Positions 3,410 through 33,631 of a stretch of 33,631 bases of DNA are shown here, piece after piece. Where the stretch lies: IMG/VR virus record IMGVR_UViG_3300048598_000014, positions 1-33,631 of that record; one strand, 5' to 3'. The stretch is from a virus. How positions within the stretch are numbered: the first letter of the stretch is position 1; each line of letters starts with the position of its first letter. The translations under genes and the position numbers were made by a program. The notes beneath the pieces were generated by a model, which was not told where the DNA came from, did no database searches, and saw only the letters and a list, made by a program, of their open reading frames with translations.

Positions 3410-3431
3410 CTCGCGCGTTTGCGGGCTTTTT
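3410..3431 (+). terminator. weak intrinsic terminator (CUCGC gcguuu GCGGG + U5)
   Basis: 5-bp stem including one G-U pair, followed by ctttttag. It lies at the end of the early small-gene block. Confidence 0.35.
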
Positions 3432-3476
3432 AGCTGGCACACTGTACGTCTATTTCTTGCTTGAATAATAAAACAG

Positions 3477-3505
3477 TGGACTTTAGGCGTAGAGTGTGGT
3501 ATACT
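3477..3505 (+). promoter_or_regulatory. sigma70-like promoter (TGGACT-17-TATACT with TGn extended -10) ahead of the ParB/rSAM/packaging operon
   Basis: Hexamers and spacing read from the sequence. Confidence 0.4.
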
Positions 3506-3572
3506 TAATCCATAGCGGAGACCTCCTGCCAGACCCCACATGATCAGGTTTCCGCTTCACTGGTGGGAAAAA

Positions 3573-5765: not shown

Positions 5766-6172
5766 TGACAGCAGGAAGAAAGTCGAAATACAGAGCAGAA
5801 ATGCTTGAAACCATTCTCAAGTTATACGAACAGGGAAAAAGTGATGCATACGTATGCGCGAAACTTGAGATAGACCGGACGACTTTCTACCGTTGGTATA
5901 AATCAAAAACAACATTTCGCCACACTGTTGATGAAGGAAGGCTGTTGGCGCAGTGTTGGTGGGAAGATTTGGGACAGAGGCTGTCAGGTGGGAGCGCCCA
6001 TGACAAGAACGGAAACCAGATTGTTACGAAGGGAAACGGGCGCGTGTGGAACTTCATAATGATAAACCGTTTCAGACAGGATTATCAGAACGCCCCTGAA
6101 AGACAGGCAACGACAGACAGCCTTGACGCAATACGCGAGGCGATACAGTCTGCGCTCGGAGGCGGTAAATGA
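5765..6172 (+). CDS. terS: terminase small subunit (HTH)
   Basis: Position directly upstream of TerL. HTH-like KSDAYVCAKLEIDRTTFYRWYK. ATGA overlap with TerL. Confidence 0.7.
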   Translation: MTAGRKSKYRAEMLETILKLYEQGKSDAYVCAKLEIDRTTFYRWYKSKTTFRHTVDEGRLLAQCWWEDLGQRLSGGSAHDKNGNQIVTKGNGRVWNFIMINRFRQDYQNAPERQATTDSLDAIREAIQSALGGGK

Positions 6173-7458
6173 AGCTGCTGCCGTTCAATGCTAAGGCGCG
6201 TGAGGTGTGCGATGCCAATCAGTTCGGCTATCTCACAGTGCTTGAGGGAAGCGTCAGAAGCATGAAAACAGTCACGTCGTTAATTGCGTGGCTTTTGTAC
6301 GTCATACGCTCTGACGAAAAAGTATTCCTGATGTCGGGCTATACAGCAGGCTCACTGCTCCATAACTGCATAACAGAGGAATACGGCTTGCAGAACATAT
6401 GCGGGGGAATGCTGACATTCAGGGCAGATGAGAACGGGCGCAAATACATGGCTCTAGGCGGAAAGCACATCTACTACTGCGGAGCGGGCACTGCGGACGC
6501 GCAGAGCGTAATAACCGGCTTGAGCATCGGCGGGTGGTATGCGGACGAAGTAAACAAGCACCACAAGACGTTCGTAAATCAGGCATTGAACAGAAGCATT
6601 GCAAGCCAGGACAGGTGCAACTTCTGGACGCTCAACCCTGAGGCGCCGTCACACTGGATTTACAAAGATTACATAGACAAGTACAAGGAGCAGAATCTTT
6701 CCGGCTACAGGTGGTATCACTTCACGCTTGATGATAATCCGGCAATCACAGCGGAACGCAAAGCAGAATTGAGACAGCAGTACACTGGAGTATTCTTCCA
6801 GCGCGACATACTCGGCTTGCGTGTTCGGGCAGAGGGAGCCTGCTTTCCTTCTTTCGTGCACAATGCAAAGGGAGCATACGGCAATGTCATGTATGAACTG
6901 CCGGAACATTTCAAACCGCTTTTTGCAAACATCGGCGCGGATATAGGCGGAACTGGATCTGCAACAACAAACGCCTGCACGGTGTTCTACCGGAACGATA
7001 AAGGCGAACTGTGCGGACTGCTCATTGATGAGATGTATGACACGGACAACAAGAGCACCGAGAGCATAATTGCCAATTTTAAGCAGTTTGTAATCAGGAA
7101 TAAAGCTAAATACAGAGTAGCAGGAGCAAGAAGCGACAGTGCGGAACAGCTCATCAAGAAGAGCTACGCTGCCACCGGTGTGTGCAACGTTGCGGACAGC
7201 TTAAAGCGTCCTATCGTTGACCGCATACGCTTCTTTGACCTTGCATACAGCCTTAAGCGCTTTTACATCTGGCATGAGTGCGTGCATACGATTGAGGCGG
7301 TTGAATCCGCGGTGTGGAGCGACAAGCCTAGCAAGGACGGAACGGAAACGCGCCTTGATGACGGAAGCACCAACATAGACAGTCTGGACGCTATGGAATA
7401 CAGCGTTGAGGAATACATGAGTGATTTTAATTTGGTAAAAATGGAGGCAGGGGAATGA
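6169..7458 (+). CDS. terL: terminase large subunit
   Basis: 429 aa. Deviant Walker A GSVRSMKT. PBSX/Terminase_3-like layout with acidic nuclease motifs (GADIGG, SLDAMEY). Position between TerS and portal. Confidence 0.8.
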   Translation: MKLLPFNAKAREVCDANQFGYLTVLEGSVRSMKTVTSLIAWLLYVIRSDEKVFLMSGYTAGSLLHNCITEEYGLQNICGGMLTFRADENGRKYMALGGKHIYYCGAGTADAQSVITGLSIGGWYADEVNKHHKTFVNQALNRSIASQDRCNFWTLNPEAPSHWIYKDYIDKYKEQNLSGYRWYHFTLDDNPAITAERKAELRQQYTGVFFQRDILGLRVRAEGACFPSFVHNAKGAYGNVMYELPEHFKPLFANIGADIGGTGSATTNACTVFYRNDKGELCGLLIDEMYDTDNKSTESIIANFKQFVIRNKAKYRVAGARSDSAEQLIKKSYAATGVCNVADSLKRPIVDRIRFFDLAYSLKRFYIWHECVHTIEAVESAVWSDKPSKDGTETRLDDGSTNIDSLDAMEYSVEEYMSDFNLVKMEAGE

Positions 7459-8153
7459 AATCAGAGACTTACAACATCGACTGTATGGATTACATGCGCA
7501 CGTGCAAAGATAAACAGTTTGATCTTGCGATTGTTGACCCGCCGTATGGACTTAATATAGATAAAAAAAATAATAGTGAAATAAAATTATCTGACAAGTC
7601 AGCAACGAAATCAAAATATTATGGAAATCAGGAATGGGATAATAATGTTCCTGATGAAAACTATTTTAACGAATTATTTAGAATATCAAAAAATCAAATA
7701 ATATGGGGTGTAAATTATTATCCTTATAATTTTTTATCAGGAGGAAGAATTTATTGGAATAAAAAAGTTACAATGCCCACATATAGTAGCGGAGAACTCG
7801 CATATTGTTCGTTGCAAAACAATATAAAACAATTTGATTATGAATGGCATGGAATGCTTCAACAGGATATGAAAAATAAAGAATTCCGTATTCATCCCAC
7901 CCAGAAACCCGTTGCTCTGTATAAATGGCTCCTGTCACATTATGCTCATGCCGGAGACAGAATTATTGACACACATCTTGGTTCTGGCTCTTCACGCATT
8001 GCATGCCATGACATGGGATTTGATTTTGTCGGCATCGAGATTGACAAGGATTATTTTGAAGCAGAAGAAAAAAGATACAGTGATCATGTTTCACAGCTTG
8101 ATTTAATAAAGCCGGAAGAGATACAGCAACTGCAATTCGCAGTAAACAAATAA
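7455..8153 (+). CDS. DNA methyltransferase (N6-adenine/N4-cytosine type, beta class)
   Basis: Motif IV DPPYG near the N-terminus, HPTQKPVALYKWLL, and motif I-like DTHLGSGSS near the C-terminus. Confidence 0.9.
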   Translation: MKSETYNIDCMDYMRTCKDKQFDLAIVDPPYGLNIDKKNNSEIKLSDKSATKSKYYGNQEWDNNVPDENYFNELFRISKNQIIWGVNYYPYNFLSGGRIYWNKKVTMPTYSSGELAYCSLQNNIKQFDYEWHGMLQQDMKNKEFRIHPTQKPVALYKWLLSHYAHAGDRIIDTHLGSGSSRIACHDMGFDFVGIEIDKDYFEAEEKRYSDHVSQLDLIKPEEIQQLQFAVNK

Positions 8154-14965: not shown

Positions 14966-15472
14966 GTGAGAATAAACACAGATTTCCGCGCCTCGCTCCG
15001 TTTTTTGGACAAAAAGAAATATTACGACATCATGTCGATGTCTCTCGGTGAGAAGGAGACCGCGGAGGGGCTTGCGAAGTCTGCCGCGGAGATTTTCTGG
15101 AACAACGAAGTTCCGGACATACCGGACATCATGGAAGTGCTCACCGGATTTTTGACTATGGAAAACAAGACTGAATCAGACGGTGAGGAATGCTTCGACT
15201 ACTACTGTGATTCAGCAAGGATTTATTCCGACTTTTTGCAGTACTACGGAATTGATTTGACGATAGCAAAACTGCACTGGTGGAAGTTCAACGCGCTTCT
15301 ACAGAATCTGCCGGAAGGTTCCTCGCTCATGCGGGCGATTGAGCTACGGCAGAGGGAAATTGACAAGAACATGACGCCTACTGACAAGGCGAAATTATAC
15401 AAGGCCAAAGAAGCCGTGATGATTACTAATCACTGGGAGGAAGATGTATGGCAGAAGCAGACGGCACAATAA
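14966..15472 (+). CDS. Gp15-like tail assembly protein
   Basis: INTDFRASLRF N-terminal motif as in the Bacteriophage Gp15 family. GTG 14966 is proposed as the start. Overlaps the tape measure start. Confidence 0.55.
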   Translation: MRINTDFRASLRFLDKKKYYDIMSMSLGEKETAEGLAKSAAEIFWNNEVPDIPDIMEVLTGFLTMENKTESDGEECFDYYCDSARIYSDFLQYYGIDLTIAKLHWWKFNALLQNLPEGSSLMRAIELRQREIDKNMTPTDKAKLYKAKEAVMITNHWEEDVWQKQTAQ

Positions 15473-18400
15473 GAATAGCAACAAGCATCGACATCAAGAA
15501 TCTCCAGTCTCAGCTTGAGCAGATGAAATCAGACATCAAGAAAACATCTGACGACAGCAAGAAGGACTTGTCACAGATTGCAACGCAGTTCGCGGCAGTG
15601 GCGGCAAGCGCGGCAGTGCTAGTCAAGGCGGCACAGAAAGTCGGCGAGACGATAGACGCATACGCACAAAAGACAGATAGAATAGACAAGATGAGCCAGT
15701 CTCTAGGGCTGACGCGGAAAACGTTTCAGGAACTTGACTATGCATTCAAACAAAACGGAACTAACCTTGATAACTTCGGAATGGGAATGAAGTCGTTGCA
15801 GGAGATAACGGCTAAGGCGGCAACGGGAGCAGTGACCGCATTCGACAAGCTCGGTGTGTCCGTCAAGAACTCGGACGGCACTCTTAAATCACAGGACGAA
15901 ATATTAAAGGAGACGCTCAGCGCATTCAACAACATGCAGCAGGGAGTTGAAAAATCAACGCTTGCTACTGACGTGTTCGGAAGAAGCGCACAGGAGCTGA
16001 TGCCTCTGCTCAACCAGACGAGCGGAAGCGTTGACGAACTTCGTCAGAGGGCGCACGACCTTGGAATCGTTCTCGGCAATGACGATGTTGACGCAGGAGT
16101 GACATTCGGTGATGCGATGGACGACTTAAAGACATCTTTCGGTGCGCTTGCACAAGGTGCGTTCGTGCCGTTCATCTCATTGCTCACATCTATAACGAAC
16201 GGACTGACGAAGGCTGTGGCATGGCTCAACAGCGGAAGTGCCGCGGCAGAAGTGATAAAGGCGGCAGTAATCGGGATCACTGCCGCAATAGGAGCGCTCA
16301 TCGCAATATTCGTGGTGCTCCCTGCCGTCATTACGGCTGTGTCAACGGCATTCAAGATTCTCACTGCCGCCATGGCAAGTAATCCTATCGGAGCGATTGC
16401 CGTTGTAATAACAGCAGTGCTCATACCGGCAATTATCTATCTGTACAAAAACTGGGACAAGGTGTGTGTGTACATAGAGAAGTGGTGCGCCGAGCTGGGG
16501 CAGGACTTCAAGATTGTAGGCGCAAAGATAAAAGAGGGCTTTGTTGTAGGATTCAACGGTGCGAAGATTGCGGCACTGTCACTCGCGCAGATTATATTCG
16601 ACAAGGTTCTAGGGGCGGTTGCTAAGCTACTCAACGTCATGGGCAAGATGCCGTTTGTAGGGGACAACTTCAAAGCGGCGGCAGATGCAGTCACCGGATT
16701 CAAGGACGGACTTGACAATGCCGTCACATCTGCAAAGCAGGAGAGCGCGGAGGCGATAGCGGACAGCAAGGCGCAGACAGCAAGCGCGATAGCGGACAGC
16801 AAGGCTCGCATAGCGCAGATTGAAGAGGAGAGCAAGGCGCGTCTTGCCGCACTCAAGAAGGTTGAGGAAGAGGCACCGGCAGACACAAGCACCGGTACAG
16901 ACACAGGTACGGGAACGGGAACAGGCACAGGTACGGGAACGGGAACAGGCTCGGAAAGCGGAGAAACAGGCAACGTTGAACTAACGCGCACTCATATAGA
17001 CGTGCTCAAGGACCTCACCAAAGAAGAGGAAATCAATTCAAGCAAGGTGAAGGACGGATATATCACCGAGCATGACGAGCTAGAGAATAACATAAGCGCC
17101 ATAGGTGATGCGATAGACGAGATGTATACGATGGGAATAACTGCTGACGCAAGCGGAAATGAACAACAGCGCGCTCTTTCAGAACTAATAGCGAAGTACA
17201 AGTCATTGTCCAAACAAAATATAAATATCGGTCAGTTGTTCATTGACAACTTAAAGAAAGACATTTCCTCAATGAAGAAAAAAATATCTTCTGTTATGGC
17301 ACCGGTGCTGAACGGTCTCAAGTCAAGCGCTATATACAAAAAGTGCGCTGAGGTTGGAAGCGCTGTGTCTGAAAAAATCGGTGACGGAATAAGCAAGGCG
17401 AAGGACTACGTTGTCAAAGCATTGTTCGGTGTCACACGTGACGCGGCAACCGACAGTGCAATAAAGACGGCGCTCAAGAATGCGGGCAAAAATCTTGCCT
17501 CTTCGCTTGTGTCAGGGTTCACGGCTGTTAAAGACTTCCTGTCCAAGACATGGAGTGCGATAGACTGGATGGCGAACTTCGACCTTTCGTCTGCACAGAG
17601 CGCTGTCACTGAGTTTGTGTCTGGTCTTGGTGACTTCTTCATCAACGACCTCCAGAACTTGCCTGCGTTCTTTGATGCGGCAGTCGATGCCGTTGACAAC
17701 ATGGTCTCAGGTCTTGTGTCGGCACTGCCAACAATTAAAAAGAACATCATCATCTTACTAAAAAAAATTGCGGCATACCTGAAAGGCGATGGATTTAAAA
17801 CATTAATCAAAAACGTGCTGTCCATCATTGTGGGAATAGCAGAGGTGATCCTGGACAATCTCGGTGACATTGTGGAAGCAGTGCTTGAGGCTGTGCCGAT
17901 GATCATACTTGCTCTTGCAGACGCTCTGCCGGATATAGTCAAGGCGATAATAAGCGCCATACCGCAAATAGTAGTGGCGGTGGTCAAGGCCATACCTGCC
18001 ATTATCTATGCTCTTGGCGTGGCGTTCGGTAACTTGTGCAAGGCGATATTTGACATGGCGGTGGGCGCAGGAGACTACATCTGGCAAGGAATTGTTTCAG
18101 GATTTGAATCCGCAGGTGACTGGCTGTACACATACATCATATCTCCGATAGAGGGCGCGTTCAGCGCGATGTGTGACTGGATAGGCGGCATATTCGGCAA
18201 AATTGGAGACGCAATCGGCAGCATACTCAAGGCGCCTATCAACGGCATCATCGCGGCAATCAACTGGATAATAGACCAGATAAACAAAATCAGGATTGAC
18301 AATGACCTTCTGAACATACATGTAGGATTCTCCCTAGGACATCTCGACTATCTCGCAAAAGGCACTGACAACTGGAAGGGAGGAGAGGCGATTGTCGGCG

Positions 18401-18648
18401 AGAAGGGTCCTGAACTCGTAGACCTTCCTGCCGGCAGCGCGGTGCACCCTGCATCGGAAACGGCATCGCTGCTTTCCGGAATGTCCGCTCTCAGGTCAGG
18501 CTTCATGCCGTCACTTGCGTTCACATCTTCGGGAAGTGGCAATAGCAGCATGTCGGTGAACGTGTCACCGACCACTGTGCAGATAGACGGGCGCACTGTC
18601 GGGCGCATCGTGTATGAACAGATAGACAGACTGGCGGCAAACTCATGA
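15448..18648 (+). CDS. tape measure protein
   Basis: 1066 aa, helical and hydrophobic-rich. C-terminal GEKGPELVDLPAGSAVHPASET motif. Confidence 0.9.
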   Translation: MAEADGTIRIATSIDIKNLQSQLEQMKSDIKKTSDDSKKDLSQIATQFAAVAASAAVLVKAAQKVGETIDAYAQKTDRIDKMSQSLGLTRKTFQELDYAFKQNGTNLDNFGMGMKSLQEITAKAATGAVTAFDKLGVSVKNSDGTLKSQDEILKETLSAFNNMQQGVEKSTLATDVFGRSAQELMPLLNQTSGSVDELRQRAHDLGIVLGNDDVDAGVTFGDAMDDLKTSFGALAQGAFVPFISLLTSITNGLTKAVAWLNSGSAAAEVIKAAVIGITAAIGALIAIFVVLPAVITAVSTAFKILTAAMASNPIGAIAVVITAVLIPAIIYLYKNWDKVCVYIEKWCAELGQDFKIVGAKIKEGFVVGFNGAKIAALSLAQIIFDKVLGAVAKLLNVMGKMPFVGDNFKAAADAVTGFKDGLDNAVTSAKQESAEAIADSKAQTASAIADSKARIAQIEEESKARLAALKKVEEEAPADTSTGTDTGTGTGTGTGTGTGTGSESGETGNVELTRTHIDVLKDLTKEEEINSSKVKDGYITEHDELENNISAIGDAIDEMYTMGITADASGNEQQRALSELIAKYKSLSKQNINIGQLFIDNLKKDISSMKKKISSVMAPVLNGLKSSAIYKKCAEVGSAVSEKIGDGISKAKDYVVKALFGVTRDAATDSAIKTALKNAGKNLASSLVSGFTAVKDFLSKTWSAIDWMANFDLSSAQSAVTEFVSGLGDFFINDLQNLPAFFDAAVDAVDNMVSGLVSALPTIKKNIIILLKKIAAYLKGDGFKTLIKNVLSIIVGIAEVILDNLGDIVEAVLEAVPMIILALADALPDIVKAIISAIPQIVVAVVKAIPAIIYALGVAFGNLCKAIFDMAVGAGDYIWQGIVSGFESAGDWLYTYIISPIEGAFSAMCDWIGGIFGKIGDAIGSILKAPINGIIAAINWIIDQINKIRIDNDLLNIHVGFSLGHLDYLAKGTDNWKGGEAIVGEKGPELVDLPAGSAVHPASETASLLSGMSALRSGFMPSLAFTSSGSGNSSMSVNVSPTTVQIDGRTVGRIVYEQIDRLAANS
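16903..16950 (+). repeat. perfect 24-bp tandem duplication (acaggtacgggaacgggaacaggc x2) encoding a (TG)n linker
   Basis: Read directly. Protein segment TGTDTGTGTGTGTGTGTGTGSESGETG. Confidence 0.9.
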
Positions 18649-20636
18649 GCTTAAGCGTTCTTATCAACGGCACCGCATATACTGCGGAGTCACACTTCTC
18701 AATCAAACAGCAGGCGGGAGCAATCAGCGTGAGCGACATAGACGTACTCATGCCTGCGACTGCAAGCGTGCCTGTAGCCAAGCAGGCCGTTCAGATATTT
18801 AACGACGGGAACGCGTTCTTCTATGGATTCATCTCAAGCGTTGAGACGCCGGAATACTCCACAGGGCTGGAGGTCCAGCGTTATCGGCTTGAGATTAACA
18901 GCGCAGAAAGCGTTCTGAAGAATCGCCTGGTGACTGAAACGTTTTCGGGCGTATATACACATGATATCGTGCAGTCTCTTTTTGAGAATTATATTTCTGA
19001 AGAAGGTTTTGAATTCGGTGCGATAAGCACAACTACTCGATACTGGGAGACATGGAGTCAGTCGTACTACAATCTATATGATGCACTTGTTGAGCTTGCG
19101 GATGATGTCGGCGCTTTGTTTTATATAGCGCCGGACAAAAAGTTTTACTTCCTGTTGAAAACTGATCTGACACAAATTGATATGCCGGCACACGTCACGA
19201 AGTTGAAGCGCCATGAGAACGCAGACAGCATCATCACTCTGCAGACCATAGCAGGCGCGACAGAAGAGACCACCATACAGACAGAAACATTCTTGTGGGA
19301 TGTGAGCAATGAGACATACCAGAGCACCACCACTCTGTCATATCCTGTGTCAAGCATCACCGCATGTTACATCGGCCAGAAGACTGATACCGGAATGTCC
19401 TGGACATCCGTACTTTTCGGCGTGAAGAACGTGGACGACAGTGATACTTCTGTGACTTTCCTCTATGAAGAATCCAGTAACACCATCAAATTGAATGCAA
19501 CGGCAGTAACCAGACCGACAAGCAGCAATCCGTATATCAAGATAGTGTATGTCGGAAACTATGACATTATGGTGACCAACACTAACGAGACGTTGCAAAA
19601 AGAAATCGCAGCGCTCAACGGCACGAGCGGAAAGATTGAGGCGTATACAAGCGACAGCACCATTAAGACATTTGCTGATGCTAACACTGCGGCAATCAAT
19701 CTGTTGAACGAAAATGACGAATGGACCGAGGAGATAACGGCAAAGTGCCATTCGCTTGACGATACCTCTCTCTATACTGCATGGAAAATACAGAGCACTG
19801 AATCAAGAATTTCCGGCATATATGTGATTGTCGAACGCACCATAGAGGATTTCGGACCTGATAATTTTTTCATAACGGTGAAACTCAAAAACCGTTCGTT
19901 GTATTCAAGATACGGGACTTGTTTGAAAAATACCACGAAGAATAATGGAACGGACGTGCTCATCTACAAGACCGCGGTTTATACCGAAAAAATGTCGTTC
20001 TCAGATTCTTTCTTTGCAGAGTATGAGGCCGCGAACTGGGCTTACTACCCTTCAAGTGATTTGACAGACCCTATGCTTATAGACGGAATGACGGACACTA
20101 CATTCTCATGCATCCATACGCATGACGTAGCCGCAGTGCAAGAAACAATTGCAAAGAAAAATCTTATCACCAGCATATCCGACATCACATATGTGGACGT
20201 GAGAGCGAAGATTACCCTGGGAAGCATTGACGATGAGCTTAAGGCAACGGACGGAGTATACATAGTGTTCGATGTCACGGTTGCGACTCCATTCAAAACG
20301 ACCGGAAAGTATGGCAGCACGTACACGGAGCATTGGTATACTGAATCGCTGATACAGAATTTCCAGACTGCAAAAACCACACACAGGATAATTGTCAAGG
20401 CGACAATGTTTTCTTCGATGTCTTCCGCGTATCCATACATCATGCTACCTACAAGGTTATACGACACCAACGGGGCAATAATCTATGATGACATTGCCGT
20501 GTCAAACATAGCATGGTATGCAGATGTGGATGACGCTGTGATTGACGCTCTCAAGAACGATCCGCCATCATACGTGGCCCCAAAATGCACGGGCACATGG
20601 TGCAAACATATAACAGGAGTGACAATAAATGAATGA
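18645..20636 (+). CDS. distal tail / baseplate hub protein (Dit/Tal-like, 663 aa)
   Basis: ATGA overlap with the tape measure stop. Position and size only, no enzymatic motif recognised. Confidence 0.55.
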   Translation: MSLSVLINGTAYTAESHFSIKQQAGAISVSDIDVLMPATASVPVAKQAVQIFNDGNAFFYGFISSVETPEYSTGLEVQRYRLEINSAESVLKNRLVTETFSGVYTHDIVQSLFENYISEEGFEFGAISTTTRYWETWSQSYYNLYDALVELADDVGALFYIAPDKKFYFLLKTDLTQIDMPAHVTKLKRHENADSIITLQTIAGATEETTIQTETFLWDVSNETYQSTTTLSYPVSSITACYIGQKTDTGMSWTSVLFGVKNVDDSDTSVTFLYEESSNTIKLNATAVTRPTSSNPYIKIVYVGNYDIMVTNTNETLQKEIAALNGTSGKIEAYTSDSTIKTFADANTAAINLLNENDEWTEEITAKCHSLDDTSLYTAWKIQSTESRISGIYVIVERTIEDFGPDNFFITVKLKNRSLYSRYGTCLKNTTKNNGTDVLIYKTAVYTEKMSFSDSFFAEYEAANWAYYPSSDLTDPMLIDGMTDTTFSCIHTHDVAAVQETIAKKNLITSISDITYVDVRAKITLGSIDDELKATDGVYIVFDVTVATPFKTTGKYGSTYTEHWYTESLIQNFQTAKTTHRIIVKATMFSSMSSAYPYIMLPTRLYDTNGAIIYDDIAVSNIAWYADVDDAVIDALKNDPPSYVAPKCTGTWCKHITGVTINE

Positions 20637-21105
20637 GAAATTTAATGAAAAAAACAAGCTGCACGGACACTACACGATAGAGGCGTATGACAAGCATGGA
20701 AGACTGGTGGAAACATATGAAATTGACAATTTGTTAACAACATCGCTGTACACGCTCATCTTCAATGCGCTCAACTACGATGTAACAGCGCAGACCGCGA
20801 ACGCATTGAATATCAACTTTATGGCTACAGGGACGGGGACTGCTCCCCTTTCGCAAAGTGACACAAAGATGAGCGCTGAACTTTTCCGCAAGGCACCGTC
20901 AAGCAAAGCGGCAGGTGCCGGAATTTTCACCTGCAAATTTCTTCTTGCAACGACGGAGAGCATAGGGACAATAACGGAGCTTGGCGTGTTCTGCAACGGC
21001 ACGAGCACCGCCGACAGTGGGACTCTCATATCGCATGCATCTTGCAACATCGTCAAGACGGCGGCTGTTAAATATCTTATGACGTGGGGACTCACACTGG
21101 CATAA
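20629..21105 (+). CDS. hypothetical tail/baseplate protein (158 aa)
   Basis: Lies between the baseplate protein and the fibre. Overlapping start. Confidence 0.45.
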   Translation: MNEKFNEKNKLHGHYTIEAYDKHGRLVETYEIDNLLTTSLYTLIFNALNYDVTAQTANALNINFMATGTGTAPLSQSDTKMSAELFRKAPSSKAAGAGIFTCKFLLATTESIGTITELGVFCNGTSTADSGTLISHASCNIVKTAAVKYLMTWGLTLA

Positions 21106-21120
21106 ATTAAAGGAGAAACT

Positions 21121-22044
21121 ATGTATACAAAGCACGTATGGTTGCCGAGACTCGGCACGAAGTTGAACAGATATCTCAAGACGAACGACACGACAGAAAG
21201 TGTCGAACTCACAAACTCGCCAGACACGATTACGCAGGCAGGCACGCCGTTCAGCCCCGACATCATGAACGAGATGGAGGGCGGTATATCGATGGGTGCC
21301 GCCAACGCATCATACTTCGCCACGGAGACCACCGCAAGCGGGACGACAGAGGCAAAGACCGCAGGCGGTAGCAATGATATAGACTATGATGACAATCCGA
21401 TTATCGAAGTCATGATGTCGTATGCACAGCTGTATGACAACAGAACACTCGTAAGCGGAAGCACTGTCACGTATCAGAATACGATTCTTAAAGCGAACGC
21501 GCTTACACTGTCATATAACGGCGGTACCGCATATCCGATTAAAGGCGGGCGCGGAGAGTATCTTGGTATCGGTGCATGGGGAGCAGGGGAATTGCTTAGA
21601 TTTCGTTTCGTTGGAAGTTTAGCCGCTGGCGGTTACTGGTACTGTGAAAACGCACAAGCTATCATGCAGGGCGGAGATGAAACTAACGGATATTATACAA
21701 AGTATACGAACGGTCAGATTACACAACCGACACAACCAGACTGGAAGAACGCGGTAAACATATCATCCCACACAACAAAGACAAATTATTATACAGCTCC
21801 TACTGACGGATATGTAGTTACTTGTGGTACTGACTCGTATACAGCTAACGTATGGCTGTATGTATCAAATGACAATGGAACAAATTGGACATATTTAACA
21901 ATATTCTATACCGACGTGAATTCCAATACGAAGGGAAGTTTTGGAATTGTACCTATGAAAAAAGGAGATTTGGTATATGGAGCTCCTTTTGAAAAGTCTA
22001 CAATGTTTTCTTTTGTACCCCAATATACCTTGATAAAACCATAA
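21121..22044 (+). CDS. tail fibre / receptor-binding protein (currently expressed tip)
   Basis: N-terminal ...ITQAGTPFSPDIMNEMEGGI motif common to fibre N-termini. The last structural gene. AT-rich C-terminal third. Confidence 0.75.
   Translation: MYTKHVWLPRLGTKLNRYLKTNDTTESVELTNSPDTITQAGTPFSPDIMNEMEGGISMGAANASYFATETTASGTTEAKTAGGSNDIDYDDNPIIEVMMSYAQLYDNRTLVSGSTVTYQNTILKANALTLSYNGGTAYPIKGGRGEYLGIGAWGAGELLRFRFVGSLAAGGYWYCENAQAIMQGGDETNGYYTKYTNGQITQPTQPDWKNAVNISSHTTKTNYYTAPTDGYVVTCGTDSYTANVWLYVSNDNGTNWTYLTIFYTDVNSNTKGSFGIVPMKKGDLVYGAPFEKSTMFSFVPQYTLIKP
21707..21726 (+). repeat. recombination core site F (cgaacggtcagattacacaa) inside the fibre gene
   Basis: Identical 20-mer present in inverted orientation at 22261..22280, and 18/20 identical at 22499..22518. 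Confidence 0.85.
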
Positions 22045-22050
22045 GGGTAT

Positions 22051-22260
22051 TTATTGTCCTTCAGTTTCCCAATAATAATTTGAACCGTAGATGCTTCCGC
22101 TTAAAGTATACAATGTCATTGTACGGAGTGATGCCTTGGTTATTCTTTCTGTATAATTCGCCTTATCTCCATTGTAAGCAACAGAGTAAGTCGGTGTATA
22201 GAATTTTGAATAAGGTATTGGAAATGTTACCGTTATTCCTGTTCCTCCTGTAGTTCCATA
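22051..22260 (-). other. silent tail-fibre tip cassette 1 (69 aa + stop, no start codon of its own)
   Basis: The minus-strand frame continues from the core NGQITQ into YGTTGGTGITVTFPIPYSKFYTPTYSVAYNGDKANY...YYWETEGQ*. Same codon phase as the expressed gene. Confidence 0.7.
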
Positions 22261-22280
22261 TTGTGTAATCTGACCGTTCG
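22261..22280 (-). repeat. recombination core site C1 (inverted, 20/20 identical to site F)
   Basis: ttgtgtaatctgaccgttcg is the reverse complement of 21707..21726. Confidence 0.85.
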
Positions 22281-22282
22281 CA

Positions 22283-22498
22283 TTAATAACCTATTGTATA
22301 TAGGTCTACATAAATTCCCATGAATCCTGCGTTGTCACCAAATTTAACAGCGCTAGTTGTTTTCATCATTTTTAGAATATCAGGTCCCATGCTACTTGTG
22401 CCTGTATAACTAATAATTTCAAAAGATGCAAAATAGTTAGCAGACGTATAAATTATTAGTAAATTTTTAGATGCACCTGTGCTCAATCCGAATAGATG
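22283..22498 (-). other. silent tail-fibre tip cassette 2 (71 aa + stop)
   Basis: The minus-strand frame runs from the core NGQIVQ into HLFGLSTGASKNLLIIYTSANYF...VDLYTIGY*. This is part of ORF 22283..22618, whose upstream part runs through the invertase promoter. Confidence 0.6.
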
Positions 22499-22518
22499 TT
22501 GTACAATCTGACCGTTCG
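22499..22518 (-). repeat. recombination core site C2 (inverted, 18/20 identical)
   Basis: ttgtacaatctgaccgttcg. It differs from site C1 at two adjacent positions. Confidence 0.8.
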
Positions 22519-22583
22519 ATTTGATTTTGCAATTCAAAATAATTTTATATAATGTACACGGTGGAAGGAAAGGAAGATGATAG

Positions 22584-22839
22584 ATGATATACGGATATAT
22601 CCGCGTTTCCACCGACAAGCAGACAGTAGAAAATCAGAAATATGAAATTAAAAAATTCTGCCGTAGAAACAAAATAAAATTATCAGAAATAAATTGGATT
22701 GCAGAAACAATTAGCGGTTGCAAGTCTCCTAAAAAAAGAAAGCATGGTCGCACACCATCGAAGCATAAATTCAATAGCGCGTAGGTACGGGGTGGAGTGG
22801 GAGACTGTGCGGACGTACATAGACAAGCACATGAAGTGA
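22584..22839 (+). pseudogene. serine recombinase (DNA invertase) remnant with an internal deletion and frameshift
   Basis: N-terminus MIYGYIRVSTDKQ...ETISG matches the Hin/Gin/Cin catalytic start. The ORF stops after 66 aa. The +1 frame then encodes SINSIARRYGVEWETVRTYIDKHMK*, a resolvase-type C-terminal HTH. The central DRLGR-containing catalytic core is absent. Confidence 0.75.
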
Positions 22840-22847
22840 GCAAGGTG

Positions 22848-22875
22848 TTGATTTTTTATGAAATTGCAGTATACT
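22848..22875 (+). promoter_or_regulatory. possible promoter TTGATT-16-TATACT for the lysis cassette
   Basis: Hexamers read from the sequence. Confidence 0.35.
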
Positions 22876-22944
22876 AAAGGCGTACAAAATAATAAAACAA
22901 TCCGATAGGCGTATGCACGGACGCACACCGGAAGGGGAAAAACA

Positions 22945-23232
22945 ATGACGATAGGAGAAGGAATTGCAGTCGCATCCCTCGTGCTCACCGTGCTTATATC
23001 TCTCGTGACTCTTGCCGTGAAGGTTGGACGCTACGCAGAGCAAGTGAATGACTTAATCGAGCAGGAAAAGAAATACGACAAGAAATTTGACGAACTGTAC
23101 GCGGACAGAAACCGCCATGAGAACAAGCTGACGGAAATCAGCACGATACTGTGCTCTATAACCGAGAAGCTGTCCGCAATGGACACGAAGCTCGACAAAC
23201 TTGCGGAGGCTGTCAATGAAAGTCACCGCTAG
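22945..23232 (+). CDS. membrane-anchored coiled-coil protein (lysis-associated, holin/XhlA-like)
   Basis: N-terminal TM segment IAVASLVLTVLISLVTLAV followed by a charged helical region. Lies immediately before the endolysin. Confidence 0.5.
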   Translation: MTIGEGIAVASLVLTVLISLVTLAVKVGRYAEQVNDLIEQEKKYDKKFDELYADRNRHENKLTEISTILCSITEKLSAMDTKLDKLAEAVNESHR

Positions 23233-23803
23233 GCTTATCACACCGAATGAATACAGCAGGCCCCAGAAGAAAATTAATAAGGTTATGGCTGTCGTCATGC
23301 ACTGGACCGCAAACCCTTCGGCAGACGCAATCGAGAACAGGGATTTTTTTGACAGCAGAAAGACAGGCATGGGCGGCTGCGGCTCCGCTCACTACATAGT
23401 AGGGCAGAACGGAGAAATCGTGCAGTGCATACCTGAGAACGAAATTGCATATCACTGCGGAAGCTCTGAAATTGACCCGGAAAGCAGGAAAATATACACA
23501 GACTATGCCCGAATGAAGTTTGGAAGGTTCGCGATGCTCCCGAAGATAACATCGCCAAACTTCGTGACTATCGGAATAGAAATGTGTCCTGTCGACATGG
23601 ACGGAAATTTCACAGACGAGACTATTGTATCCGCTGCGGAGCTGTGCGCGGACATTATCGAGCGTTACAACCTAACGGCAGAAGATATTACAACTCATCA
23701 TGCCGTTGTAGGGTGGAAGGACTGCCCGAAGCTGTGGGTCAAGAAGCCTGAGCTTTTCGAGGCGTTCAAACTTACTGTATCGGATATTTTAAGGAGAAAA
23801 TAA
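23216..23803 (+). CDS. N-acetylmuramoyl-L-alanine amidase endolysin (Amidase_2/PGRP fold), single domain
   Basis: VMHWTANP...SAHYIVGQNGEIVQ...AYHCG...TIGIEMC...THHAVVGWKDCP motifs. ATG 23216 lies 6 nt after GGAGG. Confidence 0.85.
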   Translation: MKVTARLITPNEYSRPQKKINKVMAVVMHWTANPSADAIENRDFFDSRKTGMGGCGSAHYIVGQNGEIVQCIPENEIAYHCGSSEIDPESRKIYTDYARMKFGRFAMLPKITSPNFVTIGIEMCPVDMDGNFTDETIVSAAELCADIIERYNLTAEDITTHHAVVGWKDCPKLWVKKPELFEAFKLTVSDILRRK

Positions 23804-29746: not shown

Positions 29747-30568
29747 ATGGAACGTATTGCATTGTATTGTGACAGCTTCCAAAACTGGAAGTCACACGAT
29801 ATACAAAAGGCGCAGTTGATTCTGACAGACATACCGTATCAGCTCGGAGATTCTGCATACGGTAGCAATCCAATGTGGTATAACGGTGGTGATAACGATA
29901 ATGGAGAATCAAAATATGCACATAAATCATTTTTCGATACAGATTCAAAAGCAGGTTTCCGCATTGCAGAGTTCTTTCATTTTTGCAGTAATTTGTTAAT
30001 CAAGGAACCGAAAGAAACAGGGAAAGCGCCGTGTATGATTTTATTCTGTGCATTTGAACAGCAGTTTGAATTGATTCAGGAAGCACAGAAATACGGTTTC
30101 AATCATTATATTAATTTGGTATTCAGAAAAAACTTTTCCGCACAGGTACTAAAAGCAAATATGCGCGTAGTCGGCAACTGTGAATACGGTCTTATTTTTT
30201 ACCGCGATAAATTACCGAAATTCAACAATGATGGCAAAATGATTTTTAACTGCATGGACTGGATAAAAGATACCGTGACGCCAAAAGTGCACGAAACACA
30301 GAAGCCGGTCCCGGTGCTCGAAAATCTTATCCGCATTTTTACCGATGTGAATGACGTTGTAATTGACTGCTGTGCCGGTAGCGGGACAACTTTGCTTGCG
30401 GCAAAAAATCTTGAAAGAAGGGCTTACGGATTTGAACTTAAAAAGAAATACGTAAATGATTTTTATGAAAAGATTCTGCCGTGCTATCAACCAGACATGT
30501 TCTGTGTACAAGAAAAGGAAAATAAAAAACTTAAACAGCTAGAATTTATGGAGGCTGTAAATGACTGA
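29747..30568 (+). CDS. DNA methyltransferase (N6A/N4C family) with variant motif IV DIPY
   Basis: LILTDIPYQLG, HETQKPVPVLENLI, DCCAGSGTT. Confidence 0.85.
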   Translation: MERIALYCDSFQNWKSHDIQKAQLILTDIPYQLGDSAYGSNPMWYNGGDNDNGESKYAHKSFFDTDSKAGFRIAEFFHFCSNLLIKEPKETGKAPCMILFCAFEQQFELIQEAQKYGFNHYINLVFRKNFSAQVLKANMRVVGNCEYGLIFYRDKLPKFNNDGKMIFNCMDWIKDTVTPKVHETQKPVPVLENLIRIFTDVNDVVIDCCAGSGTTLLAAKNLERRAYGFELKKKYVNDFYEKILPCYQPDMFCVQEKENKKLKQLEFMEAVND

Positions 30569-31046: not shown

Positions 31047-31610
31047 ATGACAGTAAAAGAACTTGCACAGTTTACAGGAAAAAGTGAAACAACAGTACAA
31101 CGGTGGGTAAAAAAAGCTAACTGCAAAATGCAGTTATGTAACAACAAAATGCAGTTGCAGAGAGGTCATGAAACAGATTTCAAACTTGAAGAAGTTGAAG
31201 CAATACTCAATTCTTCTAGCATGTCAAAGGATGCTGTTTCAATACTTATCGCTAATGCAAAAAAAAGTCAGCAGAGAGATTGCGGCTCTATGCTGACACA
31301 GAAAGACATGGCTGAAATTTCCGCTGTTGTCTCTATGACAATAAGCCAGATAATGACACCCATTAATGAAAGGATATCGAAACTTGAGAACGGAGTCAAT
31401 GCGCTTCCGGAGCCTGAATATTATTCAATAATCGGTTATGCGAATAAACACGGTGTCAGAGTTGATATTCACGGTGCTCTTGAGCTTTCAAAAAGAGCAA
31501 AACAGCTTTCAATATCAGAGCATAAAGATATCAGGAAGATACCTGATGAACGCTGGGGGCAGGTTAATTCATACAGCGTTTCTGTTCTCAAAGAACTGTT
31601 TGAGGTGTGA
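31047..31610 (+). CDS. HTH DNA-binding protein (first gene of the replication operon)
   Basis: MTVKELAQFTGKSETTVQRWVKK HTH. ATG 31047 follows AGGAGG. Confidence 0.6.
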   Translation: MTVKELAQFTGKSETTVQRWVKKANCKMQLCNNKMQLQRGHETDFKLEEVEAILNSSSMSKDAVSILIANAKKSQQRDCGSMLTQKDMAEISAVVSMTISQIMTPINERISKLENGVNALPEPEYYSIIGYANKHGVRVDIHGALELSKRAKQLSISEHKDIRKIPDERWGQVNSYSVSVLKELFEV

Positions 31611-31612
31611 CC

Positions 31613-32572
31613 ATGAGTGAAAATCATAAATATTATTATCTGAAACTCAAGGATAATTTTTTTGACAGTGAGGAAATGAAGCTGCTGGACACGATGAAGA
31701 ACGGTAAAGACTATCAGATTCTTTATTTGAAATTGTGCCTGCTGTCATTAAAAAATGACGGAGCGCTGATGTTCAAGGGCATGATTCCGTACGATTTTTC
31801 GATGATTTCTACGATTACAAATATGTCAATTGACACCGTAAAAACGGCTCTGGAACTGTTCAAAAAAATCGGTCTTGTAACGGTCACTGACACCGGAACA
31901 ATTTACATGTCGGATATACAATTGCTTATAGGGCAATCAACTACGGAGGCTGAGCGCCAACAGAAGTACAGACAGCGCATAACAAATGTTACAACAAATG
32001 TAGATACAAGTGTACAACATTTATGTAACAAAAGTAGTAACAAATGTAACAACAAATGTGCAACAAACGGACACCAGAGATTAGATATTAGAGATAAGAG
32101 ATTAGAGAATAATATTATTGCTCCTGCTACCGCAGTAGCCGACACGCAAAAAACAACAGACGCTCCTGTTGATAAAATCAAGCACACGGAGGAATACAAG
32201 GAAGTCGAGGGACACTACACAGAGCAGTGGGCAATACTGTACACGGAGAAGAAGGTGGTTACGGACAAGCCTGCAATCGACTTCAAGATAACGCGGACAT
32301 TGCTCAAGGGTCTTTTTGAAAGCGGATTCACTGTTGAGCAGATAAACGGTGTCGTTGACAAGGCGATGCGTGACGGATTCATTCAGCAGAACGGCTACTC
32401 GCTCAAGACTATTCTGAGCGCGGGCATGTTCAACAAATTGCTTAACGGTAGCGAGCCTGAGAAGGAGTGGGACGTATCCAAGCAGGGACTGCTGGGACGG
32501 CATGAGGGCAAGAAGCGCGACTGGAGCGAGTACTATGCGCCTGATCCAGATGCTCAGGACTGCACATACTAG
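31613..32572 (+). CDS. phage replisome organizer (DnaD-like)
   Basis: N-terminus KYYYLKLKDNFFDSEEMKLLD...GKDYQILYLKLCLLSLKNDG matches the Phage_rep_org_N pattern. ATG 31613 follows GAGGTG. Confidence 0.8.
   Translation: MSENHKYYYLKLKDNFFDSEEMKLLDTMKNGKDYQILYLKLCLLSLKNDGALMFKGMIPYDFSMISTITNMSIDTVKTALELFKKIGLVTVTDTGTIYMSDIQLLIGQSTTEAERQQKYRQRITNVTTNVDTSVQHLCNKSSNKCNNKCATNGHQRLDIRDKRLENNIIAPATAVADTQKTTDAPVDKIKHTEEYKEVEGHYTEQWAILYTEKKVVTDKPAIDFKITRTLLKGLFESGFTVEQINGVVDKAMRDGFIQQNGYSLKTILSAGMFNKLLNGSEPEKEWDVSKQGLLGRHEGKKRDWSEYYAPDPDAQDCTY
31981..32106. repeat. iteron cluster / candidate origin of replication inside the replisome organizer gene
   Basis: AACAAATGT occurs four times (31981, 31993, 32039, 32051), followed by three AGAGAT(T/A)AGA repeats in an AT-rich stretch. 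Confidence 0.5.
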
Positions 32573-33270: not shown

Positions 33271-33559
33271 AGAAGCATGGGAAAATACCCAGAAAGATTA
33301 TTCAGAACTTACAGCAAGTTCGTATGTCGGTCTGTCTCTGAACAGAACGAAGGAACTTGCACGGCAGATGTATGCTGAAGGCGTATCGGCTATGTGCTCG
33401 TTGCAGGACTACAGGAATTTCAACGAATGGTTTGAAAATTACGGTGAGCCGGAAAAGAAGCACTCGACCATGAGTATGAGACGAGAGGACTTGGCGGAGA
33501 AGGCATGGGAAGCGGCGACATATATAGCGGAACATAAAGAAAAGGAGCAGGAAAAATGA
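33257..33559 (+). CDS. hypothetical protein (100 aa)
   Basis: ORF ending in an ATGA overlap with the gene that equals 52..237. Confidence 0.55.
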   Translation: MKTFEEAWENTQKDYSELTASSYVGLSLNRTKELARQMYAEGVSAMCSLQDYRNFNEWFENYGEPEKKHSTMSMRREDLAEKAWEAATYIAEHKEKEQEK

Positions 33560-33631
33560 GAACAAGCATTATGTGGCGGCAAGGTATGCTAGATATGTAC
33601 GGAGAGCGCAAGAGCCTCCGAGACTATCACA
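33505..33631. repeat. second copy of the 127-nt terminal repeat
   Basis: Identical to 1..127. Confidence 0.95.

Follow-up and report, generated by a model that had tools for sequence, protein, structure and literature searches.

The window analysed here is a 33,631-nt stretch of viral DNA, a metagenomic contig seen once, which holds the complete genome of a 33.5-kb siphophage whose ends overlap by 127 nt (circular closure). Its tail-fibre (receptor-binding) protein gene lies on the plus strand at positions 21121–22044 and encodes 307 aa in the current isoform, composed of a constant part (21121–21706) joined to an expressed tip, tip A. A tape-measure gene (15448–18648, PF10145), a 663-aa ORF and a 158-aa ORF of the tail-fibre family phrog_4176 are located upstream, and lysis genes, with an amidase at 23201–23803, are located downstream. 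The constant part shares 94% nucleotide identity with the relative L009, and this identity runs from position 20600 to position 21727, where a 20-nt core sequence has its right edge. The fibre ORF reads T-NGQITQ-PTQPDW... across the core, and the fibre relatives P0002–P0004 are conserved through GYYTKYxNGxIxQ and divergent beyond it. The fibre protein occurs in only four clusters among 5.8 billion proteins and in none in IMG/VR or GTDB genomes, and blastn of positions 20600–23300 against deposited phages returned no match. The phage encodes RecT/SSB and makes strong use of Shine-Dalgarno sequences (22 of 28 genes). Its portal protein has a 35% identity match in a Ruminococcus MAG only, from which the host assignment is weak.

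The 20-nt core is present in three copies. Site F, CGAACGGTCAGATTACACAA, is located within the fibre gene at 21707–21726 on the plus strand, where its codons spell NGQITQ with 0 mismatches. Site 1 (22261–22280, minus strand) is inverted and 20/20 identical to site F, and site 2 (22499–22518, minus strand) is inverted and 18/20 identical, carrying ATTGTACAA in place of ATTACACAA. A mismatch scan recovered the same positions, orientations and identities that a sequence-only reading of this DNA had listed, and placed the inverted-repeat crossover sites where constant and variable parts meet. Among 100 dinucleotide-preserving shuffles, not one contained a match to the core, as compared to the three copies in the window. 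The extended match between sites F and 1 is 23 nt (96%) and that between sites F and 2 is 21 nt; F and site 1 share their 20 identical nucleotides with unrelated flanks on either side, giving the identity sharp edges. The stop codon of the second silent cassette lies 2 nt from site 1, and the same tight packing of a stop codon against (C)GAACGG is also found in the related loci L035, L040 and L009. Exact scans with AACGGTCAGATTRYACAA in IMG/VR and with CGAACGGTCAGATTRYACAA in JGI metagenomes gave seven and two matches, respectively, each of them single-copy and taken as chance.

The core doubles as a conserved protein motif, NGxIxQ, and part of its conservation is due to this coding role. Core identity is 0.83 within loci versus 0.72 between loci, a weak discriminator, and the sites of different loci differ at wobble positions. 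Of the loci compared, L022 likewise has an invertase-proximal cassette that starts with NG-x-IVQ and carries the ATTGT variant. Sites of the hix/gix type are 26 bp long and consist of two imperfect, inverted half-sites that flank a 2-bp crossover. By inspection, the window's core shows no convincing dyad symmetry of the hix/gix type, and none that holds across loci. A palindrome in the L022 site, GTTTAATTAAAC, has a different register from the ATTGAT-T-ATCAAT of L035.

Each inverted site is followed, on the minus strand, by an open frame in the codon phase of the fibre gene. Silent cassette 1 (22051–22260) encodes tip B, 69 aa after the core with a stop at 22053–22051, and the minus strand from 22281 to 22054 reads A-NGQITQ-YGTTGG...WETEGQ-stop. 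Silent cassette 2 (22283–22498) encodes tip C, 71 aa after the core with a TAA stop at 22285–22283, and the minus strand from 22521 to 22286 reads S-NGQIVQ-HLFG...TIGY-stop. Translation bears out the tip lengths of 105, 69 and 71 aa and the shared NGQITQ/NGQIVQ phase as they were first described. The cassettes were also said to lack start codons; cassette 1 has an in-frame stop four codons upstream of its core, and the frame of cassette 2 is open as far as a TTG at 22618, on the strand opposite the start of an invertase gene, an extension that is regarded as incidental. When we inverted the DNA in silico, recombination of F with site 1 produced an intact 271-aa fibre ORF and recombination of F with site 2 an intact 273-aa fibre ORF, as expected from the proposal that inversion would replace the tip without breaking the frame. 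The fibre gene has three alternative 3′ ends in phase with its constant 5′ part; one is expressed and the other two are inverted. The cassettes are packed stop-to-site, with no space for a co-inverted fibre-assembly (U/Tfa) gene. A collection of about 15 billion proteins, in which the phage is found on one contig only, contains neither of the two hybrid proteins (271 and 273 aa) as an exact match.

We then consider what the three tips may be. Tip A (21727–22044, plus strand; 105 aa after the core and a stop) is predicted to form a C1q/TNF-like jelly roll. A word-based search with tip A returned no matches, the window's own protein included, and its relatives were obtained by an exhaustive HMMER search. 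An AF2 model built from a seven-sequence alignment (pLDDT 76, pTM 0.70) matches C1q, Cbln1 and adiponectin in Foldseek with E values of about 2e-3. Its best viral structure match is a ‘Complement C1q-like protein [Myoviridae sp.]’ (E 2e-4, TM 0.61), with tail-fibre proteins alongside, and in the five inspected of its eight distant HMMER relatives the domain is C-terminal in fibre-like proteins of 256–741 aa. Single-sequence AF2 of the whole fibre was uninformative (pLDDT 32). Tip B was suggested to resemble a fibre-tip domain, and by its profile matches it is probably a Gp53-like fibre knob: it matches Pfam PF21882 (Gp53-like_C) with an E of 7e-5 and 23.7 bits, just under the 24.9-bit cut-off, it also matches the tail-fibre family phrog_1396, and its leave-out profile score is 22.1 bits versus a shuffle maximum of 14.0. 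The membership of tip C in the knob family is marginal; its NGQIVQ start and ...YTIGY end resemble those of family cassettes, its profile score is 9.7 bits with a higher score in 1 of 200 shuffles, and it has no match in Pfam. Across the family, PF21882 matches 11 of the 18 aligned cassettes at E values up to 0.01 (best 7e-12), and the cassette profile matches a solved fibre tip, 4mtm, with an E of 2e-8. Tips within one array family may have unrelated folds, here a probable Gp53-like knob and a predicted C1q-like head.

The tips A, B and C, sites 1 and 2 and the remnant of an invertase gene form a 1.14-kb AT-rich module (21727–22867) that replaces the matching region of the closest relative. 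Homology to the L009 backbone ends at 21727, exactly at the core, and restarts at 22868. The low GC content that had been noticed by eye is quantified as 36.1% in the module versus 47.0% in the whole genome, with values of 33–36% over about 21750–22800 and 45–52% in the flanks.

Directly downstream of the array, at 22584–22839, we found the remnant of an Mpi-family serine DNA invertase. Its N-terminal piece is a 66-codon ORF on the plus strand (22584–22784), in which invertase residues 1–54 occupy 22584–22751. Its C-terminal helix-turn-helix piece (22759–22839, plus strand) is in another frame and corresponds approximately to residues 173–197 of a 227-aa invertase, so that codons 55–172, about 118 of them, are deleted between the two. 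The N-terminal piece matches positions 1–47 of 145 in Pfam Resolvase (PF00239), positions 1–54 of 203 in the Mpi-family model NF009949 (E 3e-21, 76 bits; the curated cut-off is 272 bits) and the DNA invertase family phrog_125. The remnant was detected by tblastn with the invertases of L040, L035 and L078; its C-terminal piece is 60% identical to that of L078 over 20 aa (E 3e-4), with Pfam helix-turn-helix matches and blastp support. The intact L040 and L035 invertases score 256 bits against NF009949, just below the cut-off, and we class them by sequence as Mpi-like, not as equivalogs. The remnant has kept MIYGYIRVSTDKQ, which carries the nucleophilic serine in the N-terminal catalytic motif YxRVSTxxQ. 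This motif is necessary, though by itself insufficient: the remnant lacks the E-helix and the remainder of the catalytic domain. The cis invertase is certainly non-functional. A promoter-like element at 22526–22553 on the plus strand (TTTGCA-16-TATAAT, 10/12 to consensus) is a consensus match only, and the intergenic stretch that contains it aligns with the DNA upstream of an intact invertase gene in L111. There is no other invertase-like sequence in the window by tblastn, and there is no integrase, tyrosine recombinase or other site-specific recombinase among the annotated ORFs of the complete circular genome.

The intact counterpart of the remnant is P0133, a 211-aa protein on L111 from another metagenome, which is identical to the N-terminal piece at 53 of 53 aa; the corresponding codons differ by 16 synonymous and 0 non-synonymous changes. 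In L111, an inverted NGKIEQ cassette and its site are located directly upstream of the intact invertase. P0133 is 31–33% identical to Pin/Hin-type phage invertases, and the L040 homologue distantly matches the solved Gin-type ‘DNA-invertase’ 4m6f (E 3e-14). The closest deposited invertase, at 48.5% identity, is that of Bacteroides phage B124-14; we rejected this phage as a comparator because its invertase gene lies in the early/replication module with no adjoining fibre. Only short proteins were listed in a search with the 53-aa fragment, which reflects the way candidates were selected; a naturally truncated recombinase family was dismissed, as the IMG/VR loci have full-length genes of 197–238 aa.

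The same layout, with an intact invertase, recurs in about a dozen viral contigs (L040, L035, L098, L099, L101, L120 and others). In each, the order is a fibre constant part, (C)GAACGG... sites at NGxIxQ codons, 2–12 stacked cassettes and the invertase. L040 has a site F, two inverted cassettes and an intact invertase, whereas the site counts are 7 in L035, 4 in L098, 11–12 in mixed orientation in L099, 5–6 in L101 and 4–5 in L120. In all of these arrays, the last site lies 45–66 nt before the invertase ATG. A tip with 87% identity is silent and inverted beside the invertase in L099 and joined to the fibre in L101. The invertase family itself has 509 loci in IMG/VR. We did not retain L022 as a comparator: it has three cassettes and sites with an intact invertase, carries a second invertase gene where the fibre is expected and is possibly chimeric. 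The expectation that relatives would carry inverted cores holds for these dozen or so arrays with similar sites and fails for the same-backbone relatives L008 and L009, whose silent cassettes are in direct orientation with no invertase, and L010, which has no silent cassettes. Arrays seem to decay in this phage lineage. The sites do differ from the known ones, as the sequence-only reading stated of the core; two stacked cassettes are not unusual in a family of 2–12-site arrays.

To our knowledge, most documented cases of fibre-tip inversion come from enterobacterial phages (Mu, P1, p15B, e14) and bifidophages (Rin). As described in two sources, p15B Min, Mu Gin/G, P1 Cin/C and e14 Pin are fibre inversions adjoined by their invertases (PMC6109161; PMC9881135). 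As in p15B Min, the invertible DNA has a serine invertase gene beside it, the constant 5′ part of the fibre gene is accompanied by inverted alternative 3′ parts, and several in-phase coding crossover sites allow several possible fibres. The analogy to Mu G, P1 C and p15B Min drawn by the sequence-only reading was sound in its in-phase sites, knob cassette and invertase position, with the same layout in L040. Unlike these systems, the invertase here belongs to an Mpi-like family and is a deletion remnant, the sites are (C)GAACGG... and not hix/gix-like, and the carrier is a siphophage with strong Shine-Dalgarno use instead of an enterobacterial myovirus or plasmid-prophage. Unlike Mu and P1, the tip cassettes are about 70 aa long with no co-inverted U/Tfa assembly gene. 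A functional adjacent serine invertase, a trait of the Gin/Cin/Pin/Min type, is lacking here; the gene's position and family are right.

The Rin shufflon of Bifidobacterium prophages, described by Mavrich et al. 2018, includes one member with a stop codon in rin (PMC6109161). Like Rin, the locus combines a siphophage receptor-binding protein, a constant N-terminal part, stacked dissimilar C-terminal cassettes, short sites and a recombinase at the far end. In contrast, Rin is a tyrosine recombinase acting on 11-bp rix sites, whereas a serine recombinase and sites of about 20 nt are found here, and the tip folds differ. Mpi is the master DNA invertase of Bacteroides fragilis, with the repeat motif ARACGTTCGTN (PMC8375218). 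Its family model, NF009949, is also the one that the enzymes described here match, and CGAACG is common to the Mpi motif and our sites. While Mpi flips capsule-locus promoters at many distant chromosomal sites, the enzymes here are phage-borne and local and would alter coding sequence, and their hosts appear to use Shine-Dalgarno sequences. In the portions of the survey by Milman et al. 2023 available to us, tail-fibre proteins are among the predicted inversion targets, Mpi-family recombinases are enriched nearby and prophage fibre inversions are confirmed by long reads (PMC9881135). The fibres in those portions are COG5301 and Mu-like, and we found there neither Gp53-like knob arrays with sites at NGxIxQ codons nor arrays of 11–12 sites (PMC9881135).

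By its architecture, the locus is best read as a genuine host-range switch of known type in which both the invertase family and the sites are unlike those of the classic systems. We consider it probable that it is a fibre-tip shufflon of the Mu G/P1 C/p15B Min type, built from another toolkit and now most likely frozen with tip A expressed. The toolkit would consist of (C)GAACGG... sites at the NGxIxQ codons between shaft and tip, inverted cassettes arranged tail-to-head without chaperone genes, and an Mpi-like invertase after the last site. A complete invertase would bring site F into synapsis with either of the inverted sites, presumably cut at the (C)GAACGG... sequences, and invert the DNA in between. 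Inversion would join the constant 202 codons to tip B (271 aa) or tip C (273 aa), displacing tip A (307 aa). The three tips may bind different receptors, and exchanging them would then alter receptor specificity. The working three-way switch proposed earlier is unsupported because the adjoining recombinase, overlooked in that reading, is a deletion remnant. The array is most likely frozen because the invertase gene lacks codons 55–172, its two pieces are out of frame and the genome encodes no further site-specific recombinase; tip A would stay expressed unless an Mpi-family invertase of the host or a co-resident phage acted in trans. Since the cassettes, the sites and the invertase codons that remain have all stayed intact, the deletion seems recent. 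Several points count against this reading: no orientation isomer among about 15 billion proteins, a non-functional cis invertase, no obvious dyad symmetry, a core whose conservation is partly that of a protein motif, a marginal tip C and same-backbone relatives in which arrays seem to decay.

The intact sites, cassettes and frames would also be expected if the switch were still active as an orphan shufflon, with the host or another resident phage supplying an Mpi-family invertase in trans, a reading that we judge unlikely. Such enzymes are very common in viral contigs, as the 509 IMG/VR loci indicate, and Mpi acts globally on distant ARACGTTCGTN repeats (PMC8375218, PMC4747536). The reverse complement of its motif resembles ACGAACGG of site F, and a trans-supplied invertase for phage fibre inversion was proposed earlier (PMC6109161). 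However, no isoform appears in about 15 billion proteins, the Shine-Dalgarno use and the Ruminococcus MAG portal point away from Bacteroides, where Mpi was characterised, a foreign invertase may not recognise sites that differ in their wobble positions between loci, and arrays in relatives have decayed.

It is improbable, in our view, that there is no programmed inversion, with the cores being simply the codons at which NGxIxQ knobs start, the extra tips debris of homologous exchange and the recombinase fragment unrelated. The core's protein motif is common to unrelated fibres, cores are only moderately more alike within a locus than between loci, the phage RecT/SSB could promote exchange at short homologies, and L009 has direct-orientation silent cassettes without any recombinase. 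However, tip A, which is not a knob, is joined at exactly this 20-mer, with no difference even at synonymous positions, and both cassettes are intact ORFs packed stop-to-site in AT-rich DNA. Moreover, some dozen independent contigs have an invertase of the remnant's family next to an array of this kind, equally far from the last site, and homologous tips occupy mixed orientations and swapped positions in L099 and L101. A chimeric or collapsed metagenome assembly across the repeats is the least credible account, and a very improbable one. The contig is metagenomic with a single occurrence and the related L022, with two invertase genes flanking three cassettes, is odd; against this, repeats of merely 20 nt are far under assembly k-mers, the contig closes on itself through its 127-nt overlap, the architecture recurs in many independent samples and the flanks are collinear with relatives.

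Returning to the preferred reading, a shufflon that appears to be locked after losing its invertase, the locus and its dozen intact relatives indicate that uncultured siphophages follow the same logic with an Mpi-like invertase and short knob cassettes. The junction motif, GYYxKYxNGxIxQ in protein and CGAACGG... in DNA, would be a natural frame-preserving splice point for exchanging unrelated tip folds, useful for host-range prediction and phage engineering. The window appears to be a snapshot just after invertase loss, bearing on the speed at which silent cassettes decay, and it offers a test case for orphan arrays driven in trans. Possibly, though we propose this only tentatively, it represents in decayed form a family that is undescribed as far as we found, in which Mpi-like serine invertases of Shine-Dalgarno-using, probably Firmicutes, gut or rumen siphophages shuffle stacks of 2 to at least 11 tips that lack chaperone genes, through sites embedded in NGxIxQ codons. 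If so, the L099 array, with 11–12 sites, would exceed p15B Min, which has six. In the boldest form of this reading, orphan arrays could still be switched by invertases supplied in trans, and the host range of a phage would then be under the control of its hosts or of co-resident phages.

The 20-mer CGAACGGTCAGATTACACAA lies inside the fibre gene at 21707–21726 (plus strand) and recurs on the minus strand at 22261–22280 (20/20 identical) and 22499–22518 (18/20), the positions and orientations that a sequence-only reading had proposed; shuffled versions of the window contain no match to it. Repeat finding lengthens the core pairs to 23 nt and 21 nt. The fibre ORF (21121–22044, 307 aa) reads ...YTKYT-NGQITQ-PTQPDW... 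through the core into its expressed tip (tip A). Read on the minus strand, the frame runs from the copy at 22280 through YGTTGGTGITVTFPIPYSKF...WETEGQ to a stop codon (silent cassette 1, or tip B; 69 aa), and from the copy at 22518 through HLFGLSTG...DLYTIGY to a stop codon (silent cassette 2, or tip C; 71 aa); the translations agree that both share the fibre's codon phase. Inverting 21727–22260 in silico yields an unbroken 271-aa fibre ORF, and inverting 21727–22498 one of 273 aa, so that the predicted replacement of the tip does preserve the frame. The segment is AT-rich, as had been noticed, with a GC content of 33–36% over ~21750–22800 versus 45–52% outside (36.1% for the module, 47.0% for the genome). 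The frame of cassette 2 also stays open as far as 22618 (a TTG); the resulting 111-aa ORF (22283–22618, minus strand) lies antisense to the start and promoter of the invertase gene and is probably spurious, although a gene caller could list it.

When aligned, 18 cassettes from the array loci described below start with NG-x-I-x-Q-(W)-G and end with W-x-A-I-G-Y; 11 of the 18 match the Gp53-like fibre C-terminus (Pfam PF21882) at E ≤0.01 (best 7e-12), and their profile matches the solved fibre fragment 4mtm (E 2e-8) and, more weakly, a short tail fibre and the R2 pyocin fibre. Tip B alone scores 23.7 bits against PF21882, below the cut-off of 24.9, and 22.1 bits against a cassette profile that leaves it out, compared with a maximum of 14.0 for motif-preserving shuffles; these scores favor the suggestion that cassette 1 is a fibre-tip domain. 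Tip C is marginal (9.7 bits against the cassette profile, with 1 of 200 shuffles higher). For tip A, an exhaustive HMMER search found eight distant relatives, and in the five that were read its domain is the C-terminus of fibre-like proteins of 256–741 aa. Aligned with these relatives, tip A is modeled by AF2 as a β-sandwich (pLDDT 76, pTM 0.70) resembling C1q, cerebellin, adiponectin and TNF heads (E ~2e-3, TM 0.44–0.51). Several tail fibres resemble it too, as does a phage 'C1q-like protein' (E 2e-4, TM 0.61). As the fold predicted for tip A is unlike that of tip B, the locus would swap unrelated folds at a single splice point.

The recombinase, which the sequence-only reading overlooked, adjoins the silent cassettes as a deletion remnant, and a working three-way switch is therefore not supported. 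An ORF beginning MIYGYIRVSTDKQ starts ~65–66 nt past the second inverted site, downstream of a promoter-like element (22526–22553) that is a good consensus-type match. It matches the PHROG 'DNA invertase', only positions 1–47 of 145 in Pfam Resolvase, and positions 1–54 of 203 in NCBIfam NF009949, the 'master DNA invertase Mpi family' (E 3e-21). A second small ORF in a different frame (22699–22839) bears a helix-turn-helix. Using intact relatives in tblastn, and numbering by an intact enzyme of ~227 aa, we located residues 1–54 at 22584–22751 (frame 3) and residues 173–197 at 22759–22833 (frame 1); residues 55–172 are absent, and there is no other invertase-like sequence in the window. Small serine recombinases need their catalytic domain, E-helix and linker to function, and the remnant retains only a minor part of the first and neither of the others; the cis invertase consequently cannot work.

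An intact counterpart shows what was lost. The remnant's 90%-identity cluster includes P0133, a 211-aa protein encoded on the 1.2-kb contig L111, whose residues 1–53 are identical to the remnant. All 16 differences across these 53 codons are synonymous (0 non-synonymous), which argues for purifying selection during nearly all of the time since the lineages split, and thus for a recent deletion; a recent deletion also fits the intactness of both silent cassettes. Upstream of its invertase, L111 carries the window's intergenic region (84% nucleotide identity over 22504–22753, stopping at the deletion junction) and, further upstream, an inverted cassette beginning at the site atGAACGGCAAGATTGAGCAA (NGKIEQ); downstream lies a membrane/coiled-coil gene resembling window 22945–23232. 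The helix-turn-helix fragment (22759–22839) is GC-richer than the remainder of the module, and at the nucleotide level it does not resemble the C-terminal end of the intact L111 gene (L111:700–829), which is otherwise near-identical. Two invertase alleles may have contributed to the remnant, making it a chimera and not the outcome of a simple deletion.

By analogy with Gin, Cin, Min and Mpi, an invertase would bring the fibre site together with one of the inverted sites and flip the intervening DNA. Mpi, the master DNA invertase of Bacteroides fragilis, is a serine invertase whose targets are ARACGTTCGTN repeats (PMC8375218, PMC4747536). From constant co-occurrence and geometry, we infer that (C)GAACGG sites are substrates of Mpi-like invertases; we found no convincing hix-like dyad in the sites. 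With the cis enzyme dead, flipping would need an invertase supplied in trans, as proposed for another phage locus (PMC6109161); otherwise the only route is homologous recombination over 20 nt, a rare event. Public protein calls do not contain the exact hybrid fibres, which is weak evidence because the phage was seen only once. A three-way switch correctly describes the task for which the locus is built; as an account of current activity it is incomplete and probably wrong.

Comparison with relatives places the breakpoint at the core. Among 5.8 billion proteins, the fibre has four homologues, conserved up to GYYTKYxNGxIxQ and unrelated beyond. Homology with the nearest relative, L009 (94% nucleotide identity), stops at 21727, the base adjoining the core, and restarts at 22868; the 1.14-kb AT-rich block that holds the tips, sites and invertase remnant thus behaves as a single module gained by horizontal transfer. 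In L009 and L008, the contig's own tip is followed by two directly oriented silent cassettes (tcgAACGGTAAGATTGAACAG..., then degenerate aatggcaagattacacaatatg), each starting from an AACGG/AATGG core (L009:6831–7160; L008:4512–4840). The second is truncated and has GATTACACAATATG in common with window cassette 1. Neither contig has an invertase, and the related contig L010 has no cassettes. The L009/L008 cassettes look like a fossil array, and on this comparison arrays in the phage lineage seem to have been first gained and later to be decaying.

Scanning IMG/VR with the invertase N-terminus returned 509 loci, with full-length members of 197–238 aa. The subfamily nearest the helix-turn-helix fragment and P0133 comprises the invertases of L035, L040, L078, L017 and L022 (64–65% identity to P0133 for L035 and L040), and most of its members lie directly 3′ of fibre-tip arrays. 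L040 has exactly the window's layout: the fibre carries a site at 4232 (gcgAACGGCTTGCTGATACAGTGGGGA, NGLLIQWG), two inverted silent cassettes of 84 aa each are stacked at 4696 and 4954, and the invertase lies at 5001. In L035 (array at 3300–5700), a 1157-aa fibre ending ...NNGYIKYANGLIINYG... is followed by six cassettes, five of them inverted and one direct, ahead of the invertase. L098 has 4 sites, L120 (4400–6600) 4–5, L101 (4100–6600) 5–6, and L099 (IMGVR_UViG_2623620477_000002, 2600–6600) 11–12 in mixed orientation ahead of the invertase, each (C)GAACGGTTTAAA..., an array larger than the six sites of p15B Min. In all of these loci, the final site lies 45–50 nt from the invertase ATG, versus 66 nt in the window, and each cassette's stop codon falls 0–4 nt ahead of the next (C)GAACGG. 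An 87%-identical tip is inverted and silent beside the invertase in L099, and joined to the fibre and expressed in L101. Mixed orientations within an array are the expected product of repeated inversions. These observations are comparative evidence of shuffling in the family, not in the window itself.

Other arrangements also occur. L022 (270–2500 of a 4.3-kb contig) has three tip cassettes, no fibre constant part, and a pair of diverged invertase genes that flank the cassettes and are oppositely oriented; the contig is either misassembled as a chimera or carries an unusual cassette element that stands alone. Multiple inverted repeats, GCCCCTAAAATATGCAAGGTATGGCAGAAGA among them, flank another subfamily of Mpi-like invertases (197–202 aa, MIYAYIRVS...; L041:1400–5000, L019, L043, L045, L069, L075 and L082). 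The repeats overlie the start codons of a number of small genes that share an N-terminus (MQGMAEDI...) and differ in their bodies; the locus looks like a 5′-end or promoter shufflon. Further relatives have the repeat cores ACCTTTTGGAGAGGG, CCACCCTTTAAAAGTGGC and TTGAACGTTTAAACGTTCAA 3′ of the invertase gene (L013:5391–6185; L015:936–1731; L024:1181–1725; L029:1625–2144; L056:7107–8009).

The window is a complete ~33.5-kb siphophage genome, closing on itself through a 127-nt terminal direct repeat (1–127 and 33505–33631). It encodes a terminase, SPP1-type portal, tape measure, RecT, SSB, replisome organiser and amidase endolysin; neither an integrase nor any other site-specific recombinase was found, and it has no tRNA genes. 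Within the tape-measure gene, a tandem ACAGGn/ACGGGA repeat (16897–16950) encodes a (TG)n stretch (TSTGTDTGTGTGTGTGTGTGTGSESG) that may be a length-variable linker. The replisome-organiser gene (31607–32572) holds tandem repeats at 31981–32117 (a 12-nt unit x 7.5, then a 7-nt unit x 4.7) that resemble origin iterons. A radical-SAM protein gene just upstream of the terminase and two N6/N4 DNA methyltransferase genes (4752–5765; 7455–8153; 29747–30568) may have anti-restriction or DNA-modification functions. Strong Shine-Dalgarno use (22 of 28 genes) and a weak link of the portal to a Ruminococcus MAG suggest that the host type likely differs from those of known switch systems.

Fibre switches with serine invertases are known from p15B (Min), Mu (Gin), P1 (Cin) and e14 (Pin), while Rin in bifidophages is a tyrosine recombinase (PMC6109161). 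The likeness to Mu G, P1 C and p15B Min holds in its logic of inverted in-phase tips, sites and an adjoining invertase gene, here of a different family. The window's family differs in its Mpi-like invertase, in a site sequence of its own placed on NGxIxQ codons, in cassettes that are very short and lack chaperone genes, and in arrays reaching 11–12 sites. The nearest deposited phage invertase shares 48.5% identity and comes from Bacteroides phage B124-14, where its gene is not beside a fibre. In the survey by Milman et al. (PMC9881135), tail-fibre targets are predicted and Mpi-family recombinases are enriched near programmed inversions; in the literature searched, we found no description of a family of NGxIxQ-site arrays with Mpi-like invertases. 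The window is a degenerate, newly found example of a known fibre-switch strategy, a clean yet broken switch that pointed to a family of larger, intact arrays worth surveying.
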